From positions 1 through 33,734 of IMG/VR virus record IMGVR_UViG_2778261657_000006: 33,734 bases of DNA; one strand, 5' to 3'. Shown one piece after another: positions 1,469-33,734 of the stretch. The first letter of the stretch is position 1. Every line of letters begins with the position of its first letter. The position numbers and the translations under genes were made by a program. This stretch comes from a virus. Lineage: Duplodnaviria; Heunggongvirae; Uroviricota; Caudoviricetes. The notes under the pieces are model-generated. The model did not search any database and was not told the origin of the DNA. It worked only from the letters and a program-made list of their open reading frames with translations.

Positions 1469-1730
1469 TCCGGACCTTATCTGGTCATTACCAGACGGAG
1501 AAATACGTCACTATGACAGGCGTCTAAACATAATCCGTCGCGAGTGCCGGAAGAGCGAAGTTATGCGGCGTGTGTTGAACTTTTATCATACCAGTAATAA
1601 GAAATTGGTTCGGTAAATGAAATTAAAGTGTATTGACTCAGATGTGAGGTAATATGTCTATGCATATAAACACTTTGTATGCATGTTGTGTTATTTTTAG
1701 TATGATAGAGTGTGTCAGATTTCTTATGAT

Positions 1731-1760
1731 TAAAAACAACCCTCAATAGAGGGTTGTTAC
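1731..1760 (-). terminator. Rho-independent terminator (bidirectional hairpin) immediately 3' of the OLD-family gene
   Basis: Perfect inverted repeat aacaaccctc-aata-gagggttgtt (1735-1758) followed by a T-run on the minus strand (plus-strand taaaaa at 1731-1736). Confidence 0.55.
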
Positions 1761-1788
1761 TAAATAATATTTATTACAACATTAAAAA

Positions 1789-3600
1789 TTAAAGGATCCA
1801 GATTTCAGGATTCTTTAGCGTCTCAATTTGGTTTTTATTACTGGCATAAAATGCATGATACATGTCTATCATTTTTTCGTTGGAGCTGATAAAAACAGAT
1901 GGATCTTTGTTTAAAATTCTGCTATATGTATCAAATATTGCTTTGTATTCTGGTGTTAAATTATTAGATAGAACTGATGTTACTGTCTCAACTTTGTTTG
2001 ATGGATTGAAATTTTTAAAAAACAGTCCTTCGAAATGAGGTATTTGAATAAATACCATTGGTTTTTTACTTTTAGAGCATTCGTTCATTATGGATACATT
2101 TGAACCCCATGCTCCATTACCTGAAACGCTTCCTTGCTTTAAGCATTTTGGAATGTCGGAGTCATGTACTGCTATATACTCAACGTTAAATTGATTTAAT
2201 ATTTTAGCAAATGTTTTTATATTCCCTTTTCCTAAACAGTCAATGATATGATAATCAACTCCGACAATATCACATATTTTGTTAATGACGATTTTTTCAG
2301 TTGGGCCTTCAACTAATATTATATTGTCGTAAAAGAAAAACTCATTAACCATTGGGTTGCATAATCTTATCATTTTCATATTATCTTTTTCCTCTTCAGA
2401 AAAAGATAGTTCATCTGTAGATATTGTTTTATTTAGCGATTTGTCTTTTTCTATCCTAATTATAGTCGTGTGCTTCTTGGATAAGTCTATGAATACAGGG
2501 GAGTGTGTTGTAGCCATCACCTGCCAGTTATCATTGTTTGCTGCAAAATCATAAAGCGAGTCCCTCGCACTTCTAATTATAGGAGGGTGAAGAAATGATT
2601 CAGGCTCATCAATCAATAAAATATATTGTTTTTTCTCAACAGAGATAGGCTTACCTTTCGCTTTTTTTATTTTATCTCGTGCATGAGATTCGTGAGTCAA
2701 AATTTGCAAAGCAGACCATAAAACGGAGCGGCGAACACCGTGACCTTGGTTCTCGAGAAGAGAGCTATTTATCCCATCCATTTTCACTGTAAGGTTAGAT
2801 TCTGAAACCATAACATCCGCATCTACGGGATCCTTGGAAAGTATGTTTAATTCCAGTTCTAGCCCAGGAAAAACAGATGATGATGATTTGGAGACCTGCT
2901 GTAGAAGATCATCGATTTTTGATTTGGAATCTTTCATAAGAGTGTCTGTCAACTCTTGTATTTTCTGTATTATATCAGCTTTACTTTCCCCTGTTTTCAG
3001 TAACTCATCTTTTGCATCTTCCTTTAAGAAACTTATGATAATTTTTTTAGTTTCATCCATGGATTTATCTGGGCTTATTCTTATTGGTTGAGGAACTCGA
3101 CTTTGTAGTAGTGTGTCAAGTCCCCCAGAGCCCCCATCAATAAATATGCGTTTGCCAGAGGCATCATCAAGGCCATAGGATTGTTTTTGGGCTGCTTTTT
3201 CTGGATGTGACCAAACCCATTTAACACAATAATAGAGTTTGCTTTCCAATGGGGTATTATTTTTCTCCCAATCTCCCCCATACTTTCTTGCCATATTTCT
3301 TCTGTCAAGAGCATCATCTTTATAAAACCATTTCTCTCCCCCTAATGTACGAATATCATCATCAGTGATATCAGTGAAAATTCCGCACATTTCAATTGGT
3401 ATAGATATATCTGAGTTATAAAAATCATGAGCAGTCAGGCCTTTTGCTGATCCTAAAGATGCAAACTTTTCATACGCATCTAATATTGTTGACTTTCCAG
3501 AGTTATTTGGACCAATTAGCACAACTATATCATCGATATATACTTCTATTTCATCTTTTATCGACTTGTAATTTTTAATATTAAATTGCTGTAGCTTCAT
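1789..3600 (-). CDS. OLD-family (overcoming lysogenization defect-like) ABC-type ATPase fused to a TOPRIM nuclease domain; candidate anti-phage defence / exclusion protein
   Basis: 603-aa ORF. N-terminal Walker A GPNNSGKST (aa 30-38), Walker B/D-loop LLIDEPESFLHP, H-loop ATTHSP. C-terminal TOPRIM signature ILVEGPTEK (conserved Glu, about aa 431) and HDSD (DxD, about aa 480; codons around 2161-2169). Very AT-rich compared with the flanking phage genes. Candidate TATAAT -10 upstream and a hairpin terminator downstream. Confidence 0.8.
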   Translation of the reverse strand: MKLQQFNIKNYKSIKDEIEVYIDDIVVLIGPNNSGKSTILDAYEKFASLGSAKGLTAHDFYNSDISIPIEMCGIFTDITDDDIRTLGGEKWFYKDDALDRRNMARKYGGDWEKNNTPLESKLYYCVKWVWSHPEKAAQKQSYGLDDASGKRIFIDGGSGGLDTLLQSRVPQPIRISPDKSMDETKKIIISFLKEDAKDELLKTGESKADIIQKIQELTDTLMKDSKSKIDDLLQQVSKSSSSVFPGLELELNILSKDPVDADVMVSESNLTVKMDGINSSLLENQGHGVRRSVLWSALQILTHESHARDKIKKAKGKPISVEKKQYILLIDEPESFLHPPIIRSARDSLYDFAANNDNWQVMATTHSPVFIDLSKKHTTIIRIEKDKSLNKTISTDELSFSEEEKDNMKMIRLCNPMVNEFFFYDNIILVEGPTEKIVINKICDIVGVDYHIIDCLGKGNIKTFAKILNQFNVEYIAVHDSDIPKCLKQGSVSGNGAWGSNVSIMNECSKSKKPMVFIQIPHFEGLFFKNFNPSNKVETVTSVLSNNLTPEYKAIFDTYSRILNKDPSVFISSNEKMIDMYHAFYASNKNQIETLKNPEIWIL

Positions 3601-3650
3601 TACATGTATCCTTTTTCTGTTCGGAGTGGCACTTGCTAGTGCAAACTAAC

Positions 3651-3685
3651 ATTATAAAAGAATAAAGTGATAGTCTTTTTATTAA
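3651..3685 (-). promoter_or_regulatory. Candidate sigma70 promoter for the OLD-family gene
   Basis: Perfect TATAAT on the minus strand (plus-strand attata at 3651-3656) about 50 nt upstream of the ATG at 3600. The -35 element is weak and AT-rich. Not validated. Confidence 0.3.
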
Positions 3686-3800
3686 CACTGGGGCGTATCG
3701 TGATACATGTTATGTAAATGTTGCTTATCTCTTTCCTTTTATATGATTTGCTGTTATTTTTAAATGCCGAAGGCTTCCATATGTTTTTATCTCAGTTATC

Positions 3801-3846
3801 ACTATCTTTGATAGTTCGTGTGCATGCGCAGTTTCTTTGAAACTGC
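3801..3846. promoter_or_regulatory. Two adjacent palindromes (actatc-ttt-gatagt at 3801-3815; gcagtttc-ttt-gaaactgc at 3828-3846); candidate operator sites
   Basis: Direct reading of perfect inverted repeats in the AT-rich intergenic region between the divergent OLD-family and hok genes. Confidence 0.3.
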
Positions 3847-4030
3847 AGATATCCGCTCTTTACCCAAACGGACAGACAGATTTGTGTTATGCCAACGCAG
3901 AGCGTCGATGGGGAAATAGTATAATAAATGAAAGTTGTTAGTGTCGGATGGGCGTCGTTAACAGGATTTGAGAAAATGAATTTAATTGTTGTTATTGTTC
4001 TTATGGTTCGCCTTTCTGATTGATTTCATG

Positions 4031-4059
4031 TTGGCGAGGTAACGGTAGTTAAGTAGAAT
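4031..4059 (+). promoter_or_regulatory. Candidate hok promoter (TTGGCG - 17 nt - TAGAAT)
   Basis: Sigma70-like hexamers with 17-nt spacing. The predicted transcript would carry a leader of about 170 nt before the hok ATG, matching the long structured leader typical of hok mRNAs. Confidence 0.3.
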
Positions 4060-4234
4060 GGCTGTGGGTGCTTGAGGCTATCTGCCTCGGGCATGAACAC
4101 CAACGGCAGATAGAGAAAAGCCCCAGTTAACATTACGCGTCCTGCAAGACGCTTAACATTAATCTGAGGCCAATTTCATGCTAGACACATGTAGGTTAGC
4201 CTCTTACGTGCCGGAAGGCAAGGAGAAGCAGGCT

Positions 4235-4390
4235 ATGAAGCAGCAAAAGGCGATGTTAATCGCCCTGATCGTCATCTGTTTAACCGTCATAGTGACGGCA
4301 CTGGTAACGAGGAAAGACCTCTGCGAGGTACGAATCCGAACCGGCCAGACGGAGGTCGCTGTCTTCACAGCTTACGAACCTGAGGAGTAA
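4235..4390 (+). CDS. hokD: Hok/Gef-family membrane toxin (type I toxin), HokD/RelF-like
   Basis: 51-aa product MKQQKAMLIALIVICLTVIVTALVTRKDLCEVRIRTGQTEVAVFTAYEPEE: single N-terminal transmembrane helix plus the conserved Hok motif (TRK.LCE.R...G..EVAAF.AYE). The ORF track extends it in frame to 4178, but the recognisable Hok protein begins at the internal Met. Confidence 0.8.
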   Translation: MKQQKAMLIALIVICLTVIVTALVTRKDLCEVRIRTGQTEVAVFTAYEPEE

Positions 4391-4458
4391 GAGACTAGGC
4401 GGGGGAGAAATCCCTCGCCACCTCTGATGAGTCAGGCATCCTCAATGCACCCGCACTT

Positions 4459-4486
4459 AACCCGTTTCGGCGGGTTTTGTTTTTTC
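4459..4486 (+). terminator. Rho-independent terminator after hok
   Basis: Short GC stem acccg...cgggt followed by tttgttttttcc. Confidence 0.5.
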
Positions 4487-4557
4487 CTGGCATTCTGGTT
4501 TACAATTCGCACGCCAGCCTGAACAACTGGCACCTGCTGCGCCAGCAGAGAAAACAG

Positions 4558-4836
4558 ATGGCGCACAAGACCAAATTTCACAATTCTGATAACTCAGCCG
4601 ACCCTGCCATCCGGTACGGGCGGCGTTCACACGTCTTTAAAACTGACTGGTACCAGCATGATCCGTGCACTGAAGAACAGGCCGAATGGCTGATTCAGTG
4701 TTATCGCAGGCGCGGACGCGAGGTCAGGAAAGACCTCAGTCTTGACTTACGACACTGGATAATTTCCGTCAGGCTTCCTTATTCCGAACGCCCACCACGT
4801 CCATCCCGCACATTCCAGCAACGCATCTGGAGGTAA
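4558..4836 (+). CDS. Hypothetical protein in the position of Qin rem (between hok and the DUF968 gene)
   Basis: ORF in frame with track ORF 4477..4836, whose TTG start lies inside the hok terminator. The first ATG at 4558 gives about 92 aa. Assignment rests on synteny with the Qin prophage (hokD-rem-ydfU), recalled from memory. Confidence 0.4.
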   Translation: MAHKTKFHNSDNSADPAIRYGRRSHVFKTDWYQHDPCTEEQAEWLIQCYRRRGREVRKDLSLDLRHWIISVRLPYSERPPRPSRTFQQRIWR

Positions 4837-4837
4837 C

Positions 4838-5893
4838 ATGCGGGTATTGCTTCGACCTGTTCTGGTACCGGAACTCGGACTGGTTATCGTTAAGCCTGGC
4901 CGTGAATCCATGCAGGTATTCCATAACGGCAGAGTACTGGTGGAACCGGAACCGAAAAGTATGCGCGGTCTGCCGTCCGGAGTCGTTCCTGCCGTTCGCC
5001 AGCCGCTGGCGGAAGATAAATCATTACTGCCATTTTTCAGCGATGAGCGGGTAATTCGTGCTGCCGGTGGTGCTGGTGCATTGTCTGACTGGCTGTTGCG
5101 CCATATTAAATCCTGCCAGTGGCCACACGGCGATTATCATCACAGTGAAACCGTCATTCACCGTTATGGTACCGGCGCGATGGTGTTGTGCTGGCACTGT
5201 GACAACCAGCTGCGTGACCAGACCTCCGAATCATTGGAGCATCTGGCTCAACAAAACCTGGCAGCCTGGATGATTGACGTCATCCGTCACGCAATGAATG
5301 GCACGCAGGGGCGTGAATTATCACTGGCTGAACTGTACTGCTGGGCTGTTGTAAATAATGTGGTGGATGCCATGACCGAAAATATGGCGCGTCGAATCCT
5401 GAAACTTCCGGGTGAAAACATCCGCTCAGTGTACCGCGAAAGCGACATCGTACCGGGAGAACAGACCGCCACCAGCATACTGAAACAGCGCACAAAAAAT
5501 CTTGCGCCGCTGCCTCACGCCCACCAGCAAAACCCGCCACAGGAAAAGACGGTGGTCAGCATTGCCGTTGATCCGGAGTCACCGGCTCAGTATCTCCTGC
5601 GCCAGAAACCACAACGGGAAGAGATGCCTGTATACACGCGCTGGGTAAAAACGCAGAAATGCATGACGTGCGGTAATCAGGCAGATGATCCGCATCACAT
5701 CATTGGTCATGGACTGGGAGGGATGGGAACAAAGGCTGATGATTTGTTTGTTATTCCGCTGTGCCGTAAATGTCATAACGAACTGCACGCCGGGGTAAAA
5801 GATTTTGAAGAAAAACACGGCAGCCAGCTGTTGTTGCTGATTCGTTTTTTAATGCACGCGAGAAATTCGGGTGTCCTGAAGTGGAAAGCATGA
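4838..5893 (+). CDS. ydfU: DUF968-family protein (YdfU-like), with a C-terminal HNH-like Cys/His motif
   Basis: 351 aa. C-terminus CMTCGNQADDPHHIIGHG...CRKCHNELHAG (CxxC...HH...CxxCH). GGAG ribosome-binding site before the ATG. Sits immediately upstream of rusA and Q, as in Qin/DLP12-type prophages. Confidence 0.6.
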   Translation: MRVLLRPVLVPELGLVIVKPGRESMQVFHNGRVLVEPEPKSMRGLPSGVVPAVRQPLAEDKSLLPFFSDERVIRAAGGAGALSDWLLRHIKSCQWPHGDYHHSETVIHRYGTGAMVLCWHCDNQLRDQTSESLEHLAQQNLAAWMIDVIRHAMNGTQGRELSLAELYCWAVVNNVVDAMTENMARRILKLPGENIRSVYRESDIVPGEQTATSILKQRTKNLAPLPHAHQQNPPQEKTVVSIAVDPESPAQYLLRQKPQREEMPVYTRWVKTQKCMTCGNQADDPHHIIGHGLGGMGTKADDLFVIPLCRKCHNELHAGVKDFEEKHGSQLLLLIRFLMHARNSGVLKWKA

Positions 5894-6651: not shown

Positions 6652-6681
6652 TTGACCAGACACATTGTCCGGGGCTATATT
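6652..6681 (+). promoter_or_regulatory. Candidate late promoter pR' (TTGACC - 17/18 nt - TATATT) just after Q
   Basis: Direct reading. Position matches lambdoid pR'. A hairpin at 6689-6706 (cgccag-caaaat-ctggcg) lies in the predicted leader. Confidence 0.45.
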
Positions 6682-6741
6682 CCTCACGCGCCAGCAAAAT
6701 CTGGCGTCGGGATTGGCGTCCCGGATGAAAAAGGCGACAAC

Positions 6742-6763
6742 AGACGCGCCAGCGTCTTTTTTA
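6742..6763 (+). terminator. Candidate tR' rho-independent terminator (end of a short 6S-like leader transcript)
   Basis: agacgc-gcca-gcgtct stem followed by ttttttatt, about 80 nt downstream of the candidate pR'. Confidence 0.5.
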
Positions 6764-6920
6764 TTGTCGTTTGCACTGTCACATCTCAATGGTGGGCTGT
6801 GTGGGGGCGGAGCGATCCGCGCCGGTTCCTTTTTCCCGGTTACGCCAACCCTGCACAGTTCACCACCATACTGATTGGCGTCAGCAGTGGTGATGATTCA
6901 CATAGAAAAAGGATCATCCT

Positions 6921-7409
6921 ATGGCTATTCAAATCTCAGTTGAAACTCTTTCCCCGATCACCCATAACCAAATCCCTGTCATTACTACCGAGCTTTTGGC
7001 ACAACTTTATGGCACCGAAACTAATAACATCAAAGTGAACTATACACGCAATGCCGAGCGTTTTGTTTGTGGGAAACACTACTTCAAATTGGAAGGGGCT
7101 GAGTTGCGGGAATTTAAGAACAAGGTTACTCAAAGTAACTTAGTTGCACCGCGTACAAAGCACCTCATCCTCTGGACAGAACGCGGAGCAGCCCGTCACA
7201 CCAAAATGCTGGAAACCGATCAGGCGTGGGAAGTGTTCGAAAAACTGGAAGACTGTTATTTCAGCCAAAAACAACCACCAGCAGCACAAAACACCCCAAC
7301 CCAAAATGATGGATGCGCATTACTGATCCACTTCGATAAACACGGTCAGGTCGACTTCACGGAAAAACTACCCGCCGATGCGATGGTATGCACTCTGGAA
7401 CGGTTTTAA
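6921..7409 (+). CDS. ORF6N-domain / antirepressor-like protein (BRO/KilA-N superfamily-like) in the Q-to-lysis interval
   Basis: 162 aa. N-terminal region (ITHNQIPVITTELLAQLYGTETNNIKVNYTRNAERF..GKHYFKLEG.ELREFK) resembles the ORF6N/antirepressor fold as recalled; not searched. AGGA-type ribosome-binding site (aaaaaggatcatcctATG). Confidence 0.5.
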   Translation: MAIQISVETLSPITHNQIPVITTELLAQLYGTETNNIKVNYTRNAERFVCGKHYFKLEGAELREFKNKVTQSNLVAPRTKHLILWTERGAARHTKMLETDQAWEVFEKLEDCYFSQKQPPAAQNTPTQNDGCALLIHFDKHGQVDFTEKLPADAMVCTLERF

Positions 7410-7509: not shown

Positions 7510-7631
7510 ATGCCTGAAAAACGGTACAGGACGTTAAACGCGCTGGTGGTTGCGAATACTGGTCTTTCGGCTTGTATTTTTGTAAATCGATATATACTTA
7601 TCTTGTGACCAGTAATGTCAGGGCAATTGAT

Positions 7632-8375
7632 ATGAATGAAGCTTGTTCTGTTGTTTTTGTTCATTCCCCGTTTGTTGTGCTCTTTGAAGGAAAAGAGCTC
7701 TCTCTGGAAAGTGGTAGTGCACTTCTTGTCAGGGGGGGAGCTGGATCGTTATTGCCCTTTTCGGAATGTTTTCGGCGAATAAGTCTCAGTGAATCGACAA
7801 TTATCCGTTACCTGTTGTGTGGAGACGAAAAACAGGATGTAGTTTTAGTCCGGCAAATACCACGATATCTTTGCGTGAGTTTTCCCAAGGCAGAATTGAT
7901 GGGCATCCTGATTGATTATCTTTGTGAGGAAAAGATTCATACGGACAATTTAGCGGAAATGCTTTCCTTTTCGTGTCTGGCGTTTTTCTCATCAGAGAAA
8001 ATGTTTTCGTCGTTTCTGACCGCGTGTATTGGCAATATTAGTGACAGGCTTAGTGCATTGTTTCGTACGGACATTGCAGCAAACTGGACTCTGAGAGATG
8101 TGTCTTCGCGGTTATGTATCAGTGAAAGTTTGTTAAAAAAAAGACTGAAAGAAGAAGGCACCTGTTTCAGTGAGTTGTTGCTTACAGAGAGAATGAGAAT
8201 GGCAGCAATGCTGTTGAATCAATCTCGTTGCGCCATCAACAGAATCGCTGCTCAGTGTGGCTATAATTTTACATCTTATTTTATCAGCGTATTCAGGAGT
8301 TATTTTGGTGTTACACCGGCAGGTTACAGGATGGCTGCATTCAATGAGATGAGTTTAAGTGTTACTCAAGAATAA
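7632..8375 (+). CDS. AraC/XylS-family transcriptional regulator (prophage-encoded cargo)
   Basis: C-terminal AraC-type helix-turn-helix pair (WTLRDVSSRLCISESLLKKRLKEE...INRIAAQCGYNFTSYFISVFRSYFGVTPAGYR). AT-rich compared with phage core genes. Track ORF starts at TTG 7572; the first ATG is at 7632. Confidence 0.75.
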   Translation: MNEACSVVFVHSPFVVLFEGKELSLESGSALLVRGGAGSLLPFSECFRRISLSESTIIRYLLCGDEKQDVVLVRQIPRYLCVSFPKAELMGILIDYLCEEKIHTDNLAEMLSFSCLAFFSSEKMFSSFLTACIGNISDRLSALFRTDIAANWTLRDVSSRLCISESLLKKRLKEEGTCFSELLLTERMRMAAMLLNQSRCAINRIAAQCGYNFTSYFISVFRSYFGVTPAGYRMAAFNEMSLSVTQE

Positions 8376-33153: not shown

Positions 33154-33734
33154 TGGCATTCAGAATGAGTGAACAACCACGGACCATAAAAATTTATAAT
33201 CTGCTGGCCGGAACTAATGAATTTATTGGTGAAGGTGACGCATATATTCCGCCTCATACCGGTCTGCCTGCAAACAGTACCGATATTGCACCGCCAGATA
33301 TTCCGGCTGGCTTTGTGGCTGTTTTCAACAGTGATGAGGCATCGTGGCATCTCGTTGAAGACCATCGGGGTAAAACCGTCTATGACGTGGCTTCCGGCGA
33401 CGCGTTATTTATTTCTGAACTCGGTCCGTTACCGGAAAATTTTACCTGGTTATCGCCGGGAGGGGAATATCAGAAGTGGAACGGCACAGCCTGGGTGAAG
33501 GATACGGAAGCAGAAAAACTGTTCCGGATCCGGGAGGCGGAAGAAACAAAAAAAAGCCTGATGCAGGTAGCCAGTGAGCATATTGCGCCGCTTCAGGATG
33601 CTGCAGATCTGGAAATTGCAACGGAGGAAGAAACCTCGTTGCTGGAAGCCTGGAAGAAGTATCGGGTATTGCTGAACCGTGTTGATACATCAACTGCACC
33701 TGATATTGAGTGGCCGACTTCACCTGCAGAGTAA
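33153..33734 (+). CDS. tfa: Tail fibre assembly protein (Tfa chaperone)
   Basis: 193 aa directly downstream of, and overlapping, the stf stop. Typical Tfa position and size. Confidence 0.8.

Follow-up and report, generated by a model that had tools for sequence, protein, structure and literature searches.

The region 4031-4486 of the window (the whole 33,734-nucleotide stretch of viral DNA analysed here) very probably contains, judging from its sequence, an intact hok/sok-type type I toxin-antitoxin cassette of the hokD/hokW clade. The cassette is located in the early-right (nin) region of a Qin/mEp460-like lambdoid prophage and is divergent from a gene for an OLD-family ATPase-TOPRIM nuclease (603 aa; 1789..3600, minus strand; identified with Pfam and PADLOC), which is treated here as context only. 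An earlier note, made from the nucleotide sequence, had described a Hok-family type I toxin with a hok-type leader, divergent from an OLD-family gene and without relBE, and Pfam, alignment, Rfam, and the ORF list all agree with that description.

The toxin gene (4235..4390, plus strand) encodes 51 aa and is preceded by a Shine-Dalgarno sequence (SD), GGAG, at 4222-4225. It matched Pfam HOK_GEF over profile positions 1 to 42 of 42 (E = 1.2e-23; 82.9 bits, with a cut-off of 22), and its coding sequence is nucleotide identical, over the aligned columns, to hokD (b1562) of K-12 MG1655, in keeping with the previous identification of the product as a Hok/Gef toxin apparently identical to HokD/RelF. 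The hok ORF is intact in the sequence. In near-identical genomes the toxin bears the RefSeq name hokD (WP_000813254.1), a name that mirrors protein identity only.

An upstream in-frame ATG at 4178, pointed out earlier, proved to be the mok start: it lies 57 nt upstream of the hok ATG and aligns exactly with the annotated K-12 mokC start. From this codon the ORF list gives a mok reading frame of 70 codons (4178..4390, plus strand), in frame with hok and ending at the same stop codon, and an SD for mok (GAGG; 4166..4169, plus strand) can be read 8 nt upstream of the ATG. There is, in other words, an overlapping mok frame with its own SD upstream of hok; translational coupling of the two frames is putative here. 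The conservation of this and of other elements was read from a panel of 71 distinct hok leaders from species-representative genomes, retrieved with a pattern that touches only dcb and the SD of hok; the leader and the Hok protein sequence of R1 are both included. The column of the mok start holds an ATG in 46 of the 71 leaders, and in 25 of those 46 the frame is open and in frame with hok.

A TACG motif at the Tyr47 codon (4373..4376, plus strand), read from the sequence, is a candidate site for TadA A-to-I editing, which would change Tyr to Cys. Editing at the same Tyr has been reported at about 6% for K-12 hokD, the coding DNA of which is identical, and Tyr and Cys alternate at this position among homologues. 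Folding of the sequence around the motif gave no significant local structure (z = -0.44), consistent with the low editing level reported for hokD.

Promoters, hok mRNA, and Sok RNA

The predicted hok promoter (4031..4059, plus strand) is composed of a -35 TTGGCG (4031-4036), a 17-nt spacer, and a -10 TAGAAT (4054-4059), as had been proposed previously, and both the consensus scan and the conservation of the -10 point to this site. The scan of the region gave 3 sites, with 2.4 expected, which is at chance level compared with shuffles; because the generic scan performs no better than shuffles, the promoter calls rest on homology and conservation. The -10 pattern T-A-n-A-A-T is conserved in 70 to 71 of 71 independent hok loci and is invariant in a five-locus alignment; the -35 is not conserved across the family.

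The full-length hok mRNA would extend from 4066 to 4486 on the plus strand (about 421 nt), the 5' end being placed from the homologous 5' ends of R1 and hokC and from the distance to the -10. This gives a leader of 169 nt (4066 to 4235), matching the approximately 170 nt suggested earlier, and the Rfam sok model matched the leader at 4066-4240 with 114.1 bits (gathering score, 59). At the other end, the terminator scan recovered the intrinsic terminator that had been noted at 4459..4486 (plus strand), with a 7-bp stem (4459-4476) followed by TTGTTTTTTC, the T-run reaching 4486; it marks where the full-length hok mRNA ends.

The full-length mRNA has a predicted minimum free energy (MFE) of -171.6 kcal/mol (z = -7.84 compared with shuffles) and is closed by 5'-3' pairing. 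In this fold the translational activator element tac (GGGUGCUUGAGG; 4066..4077, plus strand), which was delimited by fold pairings and by covariation with fbi, pairs with the fold-back inhibition element fbi (CCUCAAUGCACCC; 4440..4452, plus strand), while the SD of mok is paired with ucb (AAGCCCC; 4118..4124, plus strand), the anti-SD of mok. A 9-bp-stem hairpin at 4078..4113 (plus strand; arms CUAUCUGCC and GGCAGAUAG at 4078-4086 and 4105-4113), which the earlier note had singled out, appears in both the full-length and truncated folds and corresponds to the conserved stem stacked upon the tac-fbi helix. It is 93.7% paired in the 71 leaders, compared with 41 to 55% for shifted controls, with compensatory changes present; the pair 4080/4111, for example, is TA in 37 leaders, AT in 19, GT in 10, and GC in 4.

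In the nascent transcript, tac is predicted to pair with 4084-4094 in a metastable hairpin (4068..4094, plus strand), which is the MFE structure of the first 35 to 48 nt (-18.8 to -19.0 kcal/mol; z of about -3.5 to -5) and is 84.5% paired in the 71 leaders compared with 34 to 47% for shifted controls, with AT-to-GC double changes. For the ucb/SD helix the panel gives 86.8% pairing, the pair 4125/4165 being GC in 43 leaders or AT in 25; for the tac/ucb helix it gives 97.6%. All four of these panel helices (hairpin, metastable, ucb/SD, and tac/ucb) exceed the shifted controls and show double compensatory changes. The element dcb (GCCUC; 4199..4203, plus strand) is complementary to the SD of mok and pairs with 4166-4170 in the truncated-mRNA MFE structure. 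It is invariant in the five-locus alignment; the panel carries no covariation information on it, the motif having been part of the search pattern.

The duplex of tac with fbi has an energy of -21.5 kcal/mol, compared with -12.2 +/- 2.3 kcal/mol for shuffled 3' UTRs, 1 of 1,000 of which was as good. In most panel loci fbi is found at the same position, about 47 to 57 nt past the stop codon, and tac and fbi covary in distinct, matched sequence classes across the panel and across genera. In the matrix of tac-by-3'-UTR duplex energies one column was unusable, at least one 3' UTR, probably too short, having no valid duplex in the 36-80 nt window; the comparison draws on the remaining columns. Upstream of fbi, a stem-loop with a 9-bp stem and a GAAA loop (4398..4419, plus strand) is present in all folds and, by analogy to R1, would mark the end of the processed, truncated hok mRNA.

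When the mRNA was cut at 4420 or 4430, the MFE structure became an open form in which tac is paired with ucb and the SD of mok with dcb, an arrangement that costs 15 kcal/mol when forced on the full-length mRNA. Both tac-fbi closure and the alternative closed and open pairings of hok/sok mRNAs are thus found in the predicted folds, with the SD of mok passing from ucb to dcb and tac from fbi to ucb. For an mRNA cut at 4424, the MFE structure is the metastable-hairpin fold, favoured by about 4 kcal/mol over the open form when this is forced; the open form as modelled hinges on the assumed 3' end.

A Sok-like antisense gene of about 77 nt is predicted on the minus strand at 4110..4186, its ends aligned to the annotated K-12 sokC ncRNA, with a promoter within mok. 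At its 5' end the RNA has a single-stranded tail complementary to the start region of mok, which is followed by a long terminator hairpin and then by a U-rich tail; its fold has an energy of -30.5 kcal/mol (z = -5.25), and the hairpin contains an 18-nt insertion compared with hokC and R1-type loci. The candidate Sok promoter (4193..4221, minus strand) has a -35 TTGCCT (4221 to 4216), a 17-nt spacer, and a -10 TAACCT (4198 to 4193). The generic promoter scan did not flag it, and TAACCT is weak by consensus. The pattern T-A-n-n-n-T is conserved in the panel: A4197 and T4193, as well as the +1 G at 4186, are invariant in 71 of 71 leaders, and all 71 have the 17-nt spacer. The promoter-less sokW mutant of Sakai prophage 5 (Sp5), constructed with primers YO-421 and YO-422, replaces exactly the hexamer TAACCT, a change made to do away with antitoxin activity (PMC8621323).

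The Rfam match is on the plus strand, and a plus-strand Sok was therefore considered. It was rejected: the consensus of the model ends in the SD of hok and an AUG, aligned to 4235-4237, so the model is written in the sense of hok mRNA, and homology to annotated K-12 sokC puts Sok on the minus strand.

The earlier note had held that Sok control could not be read from the sequence. With the antisense gene placed by sokC homology and promoter conservation, that question is largely answerable; the caution stands for expression, which is a prediction here. The alignment that had been suggested as a check for mok, sok, tac, and fbi placed all canonical hok/sok regulatory elements in the leader and 3' UTR. 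Besides the sok model, an Rfam search of 3000-5500 at a permissive threshold returned only a chance-level snoRNA match (E = 0.15). A tRNA scan of the window found zero tRNA genes, a repeat search of 3560-4070 gave only short chance-level matches, and a Pfam search gave no match for the small ORF at 3928-4023, the conserved 29-aa upstream peptide, or the 92-aa ORF at 4558-4836.

Comparison with known hok systems

In hokW-sokW of Sp5 in E. coli O157:H7, a lambdoid-prophage hok/sok locus with a 51-aa toxin like that of the window, the toxin, the antitoxin, and the loss of Sok on mitomycin C induction have been demonstrated (Takada et al. 2021, PMC8621323). Primers and probes from that study show 0 to 1 mismatches with the window over the initial ~48 nt of the mRNA, over the Sok -10 TAACCT, and around dcb/SD-hok. 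The toxins differ at the C terminus (...VFVDYESEK for Sp5, as read from primers, versus ...VFTAYEPEE in the window), and several bases differ in the Sok 5' tail/mok start region (GAGGCCAATTTCATGCTAGAC in the window versus GAGGCTCAATCCATGCTGAAC in Sp5); the two loci have neither the -35 region nor the sequence upstream of 4047 in common. A closely related Stx2 converting phage (933W type) has a hok cassette about 94% identical over 4047-4462, and the locus lies in another part of that phage genome than in the window. An in-frame mok is also found in phage records annotated "MokW."

The Qin prophage of K-12 carries hokD (relF) as the third gene of the relBEF operon, at a position syntenic with that of the window, between the replication region and rem/ydfU/Q. 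Identity is 100% over the DNA that runs from 4221 to the end of the stop codon and includes the SD of hok and all of hok; the 3' UTR, in which fbi and the terminator lie, is near-identical and differs by a few substitutions. Everything upstream of 4221 is missing from K-12 hokD, namely, the hok promoter, tac, the hairpins, ucb, the mok start, the Sok target, the Sok gene, and the Sok -10; relE abuts the point matching 4221, and hokD is co-transcribed with relBE. The window has no relBE, as the earlier note had observed, and the 603-aa OLD-family gene at 1789-3600 is found in its place on the minus strand. Assignment of the locus to the K-12-type, relBEF-member form of hokD was rejected on the absence of relBE, the full 169-nt leader, and K-12 homology that starts only at 4221. 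On sequence comparison, the window contains the un-rearranged, complete ancestral form of the K-12 hokD gene. It has already been stated in the literature that an ancestral ORF of ~70 codons was cut to 51 codons by relBE integration, and the window makes concrete the published claim that this integration took away the leader and the antitoxin.

The paradigm system, R1 hok/sok (parB), matches the window in the order of its elements and in how their folding is organised: tac, metastable hairpin, conserved hairpin, ucb, SD of mok, mok, dcb, a Sok promoter inside mok, fbi, and terminator. It is located on a plasmid, whereas the window locus is on a prophage, and the R1 Hok and window toxin proteins are only distantly similar (HokW and R1 Hok share 44% identity; PMC8621323). 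In the window mok is in the hok frame, whereas it is in another frame in 14 panel leaders, including the R1 type; the tac/fbi class is GGGUGC/GCACCC in the window and GGCGC/GCGCC for R1, and the R1 Sok hairpin is 18 nt shorter. The closest annotated reference with all three genes is hokC/mokC/sokC (gef) on the K-12 chromosome. The mokC start, the hokC start and stop, and the sokC ends align to 4178, 4235, 4390, 4186, and 4110, respectively, and mok is in frame in both loci. In the hokC locus of K-12 the 18-nt hairpin insertion is absent, the Sok -10 contains a gap of 1 nt, and an IS186 lies just downstream, at the expected place of fbi.

The hok/sok locus of the window is an ordinary, already known system. 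As a discovery it carries little weight, the system being textbook, the toxin being in RefSeq as HokD, and the cassette being found in most complete E. coli genomes (4722 of 5426). RefSeq labels only the 51-aa CDS here and leaves out the mok frame, the gene for Sok RNA, and the elements of the mRNA, all of which can be placed to the nucleotide.

Predicted regulation and activity of the cassette

The elements described above are features of the sequence, and their function is read from homology to R1 hok/sok and Sp5 hokW-sokW. The promoter at 4031-4059 would yield an mRNA of about 420 nt, the 5' tac of which would be kept in the metastable hairpin during transcription. Once the mRNA is complete, tac would pair with fbi near the 3' end and ucb would sequester the mok Shine-Dalgarno sequence, leaving the message translationally silent. 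Slow 3' trimming would take off fbi, upon which tac would move to ucb and the mok start region would open. Translation of mok, an in-frame N-terminal extension of hok, would then drive that of the 51-aa membrane toxin. Short-lived Sok (4186 to 4110, opposite strand) would pair with the mok start region, leading to decay and blocking the toxin, which would be made only after the synthesis of Sok has ceased, as might happen on prophage induction, on loss of the element, or when an infecting phage shuts off transcription. For R1, slow 3' processing, RNase III cleavage of the Sok-hok duplex, and killing on Sok decay have been shown, and these steps have been partly shown for hokW-sokW (PMC8621323). 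The biological role, for close relatives as well, may lie in help with lysis timing, in prophage retention, or in abortive infection.

A locus complete in appearance could, like the majority of hok loci on the K-12 chromosome, be dead or silent and persist as a passenger in decay that has no role at present; of those K-12 loci, hokA, hokC, hokD, and hokE are reported to be inactive. Some decay of the prophage is visible as a frameshift in the DUF977 gene upstream of the OLD cassette, compared with a near-identical strain, and the weak consensus of the Sok -10 points in the same direction. However, the K-12 loci were inactivated by IS insertions or rearrangement, and no lesion of this kind is present in the window, which has the ORF, mok, both promoters, tac, ucb, dcb, fbi, and terminator in intact form. 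Moreover, the near-identical hokW-sokW locus is functional (PMC8621323), and the cassette is kept at 95 to 99% identity in about 1900 E. coli records. We therefore regard a dead locus as very unlikely and favour an intact hok/sok cassette, with the qualification that intactness as predicted from sequence is no proof of activity, since most K-12 chromosomal hok loci are reported to be inactive.

OLD gene and the slot upstream of hok

The product of the OLD-family gene matched Pfam AAA_15 (8.5e-30) and OLD-like_TOPRIM (2.3e-14), and its best PADLOC match was Old (3.4e-73), ahead of the GajA models. With an N-terminal ABC-type ATPase, a C-terminal TOPRIM domain, and no adjacent UvrD-like helicase gene, it belongs to class 1 (single-gene, P2 Old-like). 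The ORFs flanking it are DUF977 and hok, and it is located on a low-GC cassette at about 1620-3978. PADLOC returned no match for Hok and hence gives no information on a defence role of the toxin.

It had been asked earlier whether hok and the nuclease cooperate as an abortive-infection module. Such a two-gene module, with the toxin as effector or back-up of the nuclease sensor or with 3601-4030 as a common regulatory region, would fit the adjacent, divergent arrangement of the two genes about 430 bp apart, the presence of the OLD gene beside hok in 4 of the 4 E. coli genomes that have it, the frequency of defence genes (Old, PD-T7-1, and PDC-S15) in the slot upstream of hok, and the reported lowering of T4 plating by R1 hok/sok. 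The distribution of the genes argues otherwise. While the OLD gene is found in 4 of 5426 complete E. coli genomes, the hok cassette is common among them without it, other cargo occupies the slot, and an obligate link is unsupported. The four loci with the OLD gene are copies of a single, nearly unchanged prophage (96.8 to 99.9% identity) and hence represent one acquisition event, and homology to other hok-bearing phages ends at 3978/3979, which marks the OLD cassette as a separate low-GC insertion. In eight other phages or prophages the neighbours of hok differ, and conserved co-occurrence of OLD and hok was not found. Furthermore, PADLOC places the protein under single-gene Old, the helicase partner gene is not adjacent, and in a survey preprint the proximity of hok to defence systems was at chance level (12% versus 9.4%). 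Cooperation of the two genes as a module is highly improbable; the OLD gene is best read as defence cargo of low GC content that was acquired independently, in a slot of variable content, and not as a partner of hok.

The slot upstream of hok is occupied by PD-T7-1 in mEp460, by PDC-S15 in Tritos, by relBE-ydfV-flxA in K-12, and by other cargo elsewhere; among the nine loci sampled, the contents between DUF977, a replication-associated gene, and hok are Old, PD-T7-1, PDC-S15, RelBE, an acetyltransferase, QueH, and an adhesin. A literature search for a lambdoid hotspot beside hok found no description of one. It is conceivable, albeit unlikely, that hok/sok is the fixed right-hand anchor of an undescribed cargo/defence hotspot, the DUF977-to-hok slot, in Qin/mEp460-type lambdoid prophages. 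If so, hok/sok might stabilise the adjacent cargo by post-segregational killing, or it might be activated by read-through from the early operon that silences Sok, in which case the module would be coupled to prophage induction.

The toxin gene, its leader and the Sok gene

A 70-codon open reading frame (ORF) on the plus strand (4178-4390) contains the 51-codon Hok frame, which starts at the ATG at 4235 and whose 51-amino-acid product matches the whole Pfam HOK_GEF profile (E = 1.2e-23; 82.9 bits, cut-off 22). A consensus scan placed the hok promoter (TTGGCG-17-TAGAAT, 4031-4059, plus strand) and a single plus-strand intrinsic terminator, with its stem at 4459-4476 and a T-run to 4486. The minus strand carries the gene for a 603-amino-acid OLD-family protein with AAA_15 and OLD-like_TOPRIM domains (Pfam; 1789-3600), for which the top PADLOC match was the single-gene Old model (3.4e-73). 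Every feature listed in an earlier note on this DNA was found where that note had put it, and its reading of a Hok-family toxin with a hok-type leader is correct, the finding being real. The locus is a textbook hok/sok system in one of the commonest genomic settings for such loci, and as such is already known.

The Rfam "sok" model RF01794 matched at full length on the plus strand (4066-4240; 114.1 bits, gathering score 59). Since its consensus ends in the hok Shine-Dalgarno (SD) sequence and AUG, what the model represents is the sense strand of the hok mRNA leader; the plus strand was accordingly rejected as the strand that encodes Sok. We aligned the window with hokC/mokC/sokC of Escherichia coli K-12 and with the hok loci of an IncHI1 plasmid, an IncY phage-plasmid and phage mEp460, and carried the K-12 annotation over through this five-locus alignment. 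On the plus strand the mokC start fell at 4178 and the hokC start and stop at 4235 and 4390. On the minus strand sokC had its 5' end at 4186 and its 3' end at 4110. The in-frame upstream ATG at 4178, previously noticed without an assignment, coincides with the annotated mokC start and is the mok start; K-12 mokC, like mok in the window, is in frame with hok. The search for mok, sok, tac and fbi by alignment to hok loci recovered a complete hok leader, and every element of the hok/sok circuit is present and intact at the sequence level.

On the minus strand, the Sok promoter could be read as a -35 element, TTGCCT (4221 to 4216), a 17-nt spacer and a -10 element, TAACCT (4198 to 4193), with the +1 G 3' of it at 4186; a comparison of 71 leaders shows conservation of the T-A-n-n-n-T skeleton, of the spacer length of 17 nt and of the +1 G. 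The 77-nt Sok RNA (4186 to 4110) has a predicted fold of -30.5 kcal/mol (z = -5.25): a short 5' tail, complementary to the mok start region, stays single-stranded, and a long hairpin and then a U-rich tail follow. This hairpin exceeds that of hokC and R1-type loci by 18 nt. The 18-nt insertion, ACGCGTCCTGCAAGACGC, lies within 4128-4163 (sense) and sets the hokD/hokW clade (the window, mEp460 and the IncY phage-plasmid) apart from those loci; it is a small hairpin itself and extends the terminator stem of Sok as well as the stem that Sok targets. At the sequence level, the locus shares homology with Sok genes known from annotation or experiment.

Primers and probes designed for hokW-sokW of prophage Sp5 of E. 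coli O157:H7 match the window with 0-1 mismatches in the tac/hairpin and dcb/Sok-promoter regions, and the "promoter-less" sokW construct substitutes exactly the window's TAGGTTA (TAACCTA on the minus strand) (PMC8621323). HokW of Sp5 is toxic and is neutralised by sokW; mitomycin C induction leads to the disappearance of sokW and to RecA-dependent production of HokW, and loss of hokW-sokW halves phage release (PMC8621323). This work directly supports the Sok gene in the window. From plasmid R1 hok/sok and hokW-sokW together we infer the likely transcription start sites, 3' processing of the hok mRNA, mok-hok translational coupling, RNase III decay of the Sok-hok duplex and toxicity of Hok at this locus. 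As a best estimate, and the least certain part of our account, the toxin would be held back by Sok and freed once Sok transcription ceases, most plausibly either when the prophage is induced, which is the hokW model, or when a superinfecting phage shuts off host transcription.

The predicted RNA folding switch

The full-length mRNA (4066-4486) has a predicted fold of -171.6 kcal/mol (z = -7.84), in which tac, the first 12 nt (GGGUGCUUGAGG), pairs with fbi (CCUCAAUGCACCC) at 4440-4452, the hairpin at 4078-4086/4105-4113 is stacked on the tac-fbi helix, and ucb (GCCCCAG) is paired with CUGAGGC, which holds the mok SD. The nascent transcript (nucleotides 1-35 to 1-48) is instead predicted to form a hairpin pairing tac with 4084-4094, which is the metastable structure known from R1 hok. 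For mRNAs ending at 4420 or 4430, directly 3' of the stem-loop at 4398-4419, the unconstrained minimum free energy structure is the open form, tac/ucb plus SD-mok/dcb (dcb GCCUC, 4199-4203), which carries a 15 kcal/mol penalty when imposed on the full-length RNA in a constrained fold. An mRNA ending at 4424 is predicted to adopt the metastable variant rather than the open form, so the open-form prediction is sensitive to the exact 3' end. As modeled, the predicted folds reproduce the hok switch.

Scanning species-representative genomes with a pattern limited to dcb and SD-hok yielded 112 stretches, of which 81 had a Hok-length ORF directly 3'. These loci, from Escherichia, Shigella, Kluyvera, Citrobacter, Klebsiella, Serratia, Pantoea, Erwinia and further genera, include the exact R1 Hok sequence. 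Covariation was assessed over 71 distinct leaders, with pairing partners moved by 1-3 columns as controls. The hairpin at 4078-4086/4105-4113 was paired in 93.7% of cells (41-55% when shifted), pair 4080/4111 being TA, AT, GT or GC; the metastable hairpin was paired in 84.5% (34-47% when shifted), with AT-to-GC double changes; and ucb/SD-mok was paired in 86.8% (19-39% when shifted), 43 leaders having GC and 25 having AT at pair 4125/4165. The tac/ucb helix was paired in 97.6% of cells, yet it is nearly invariant and carries little information. The best complement of the 5' 13 nt is found ~47-57 nt past the stop codon in most panel loci, and the tac and fbi sequences vary jointly in classes, such as the pair GGGUGCUCUGGAU and GAUCCAUGAGCACCC in Serratia and, in another class, the pair GGGCGCCUGAGGC and GCCUUCAGGCGCCC. 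The tac-fbi duplex of the window reaches -21.5 kcal/mol, against -12.2 +/- 2.3 for shuffled 3' untranslated regions (UTRs), 1 in 1000 of which was equally good. The alternative helices have both thermodynamic and comparative support.

Relation to K-12 hokD and the prophage cargo slot

The suggestion in the earlier note that the product is identical to HokD/RelF was borne out by 100% DNA identity with K-12 across the entire coding sequence. Aligned against the relE-hokD region of MG1655, the window is 100% identical from 4221 to the stop codon at 4390, which covers the hok SD and the full coding sequence, and only a few substitutions separate the near-identical 3' UTRs, fbi and terminator included. 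This alignment gave no homology to the K-12 hokD region 5' of 4221, because relE ends at that point in K-12. The K-12 locus is a truncated version of the one in the window. The truncation relative to the complete form is already published: relF (hokD) and relBE form one co-transcribed unit, relBE integration cut the ancestral ~70-codon hokD ORF down to 51 codons, and K-12 hokD is without components of the canonical system owing to rearrangement. The Tyr47 codon of hok, TAC, and the following G (4373-4376) form TACG, the motif of TadA A-to-I editing; in K-12 hokD, whose coding DNA is identical, this site is reported to undergo editing at ~6%, changing Tyr to Cys. Panel Hok homologues alternate between Tyr and Cys at this position, and the fold around the motif is weak (z = -0.44).

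The window is a lambdoid prophage with a replication protein, DUF977, the OLD gene, hok, DUF968, RusA, Q, lysis genes and a full morphogenesis region, and is syntenic with K-12 Qin around hokD. Homology to other hok-bearing phages begins at 3979 (4047 in Stx phages), and the stretch from ~1620 to 3978 has 28-39% GC versus ~50% in its flanks. This stretch, bounded by the DUF977 gene on one side and hok on the other, is a cargo slot that varies across Qin/mEp460-like lambdoid prophages, holding Old in the window, PD-T7-1 in mEp460, a PDC-S15 candidate in Tritos, relBE-ydfV-flxA in K-12, and a methyltransferase with a hypothetical protein in HannyBb; further records hold a helix-turn-helix protein with an acetyltransferase, a methyltransferase remnant with QueH, and the Paa adhesin. 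Several of these cargo genes are antisense to the early operon, and in Tritos an RmrT/RmrA-like pair lies just downstream of hok.

The possibility, raised earlier, that hok and the neighbouring nuclease act as a joint module is disfavoured. Matches to the hok cassette, labelled HokD, MokW, Gef or host killer protein, were found in 4722 of 5426 complete E. coli genomes, as well as in many lambdoid or Stx phages, and matches to the OLD gene in only 4 genomes of that set, all with the same prophage. With hok constant and the cargo variable, other elements carrying different genes in the slot, a dedicated hok-OLD module is argued against; the arrangement is compatible with a hok gene that borders a cargo hotspot. 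In a recent survey preprint, hok showed enrichment in prophages and, overall, none near defence systems.

Other features of the prophage

A 29-residue hydrophobic ORF, MLVLKCALAIAAVMAIYCLAVVLMDRLSD, with a GTG start preceded by AGGAGG, lies just 5' of the hok promoter in mEp460, Tritos, HannyBb and the E. coli strains 377323_2f and S19-651, and tblastn also found it in phage Evi. It has no annotation in RefSeq/GenBank or just overlaps an automatic "hypothetical protein." At its right edge (3978/3979), the OLD cassette of the window interrupts this ORF, of which just the last ~45 nt remain, fused to unrelated sequence as ORF 3928-4023; a Pfam search with the peptide and this ORF gave no match. 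The DUF977 gene (1193-1616) has seven A's at 1424-1430 versus six in strain VG48B2, which is identical over the rest of this stretch. The extra A splits the gene into overlapping ORFs (1193-1468 and 1329-1616), so that it is a frameshift pseudogene unless the extra A is a homopolymer sequencing error.

Rfam matches to c4-a1b1 (6675-6727), isrK (6688-6762) and C4 antisense RNA (6785-6870) lie just 3' of the Q antiterminator gene and 5' of an ORF6N/KilAC-type antirepressor ORF (6921-7409); together they are a P1/P7-style C4 antisense immunity module within a lambdoid prophage. A 267-amino-acid ORF (7572-8375), located after the antirepressor ORF and before the lysis genes, looks like another cargo gene; a near-identical genome has a shorter RefSeq coding sequence there, with no label beyond helix-turn-helix protein. 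A full-length match (223.7 bits) to Rfam IS009, a candidate small RNA family, spans 33496-33694, close to where the tail-gene region ends.
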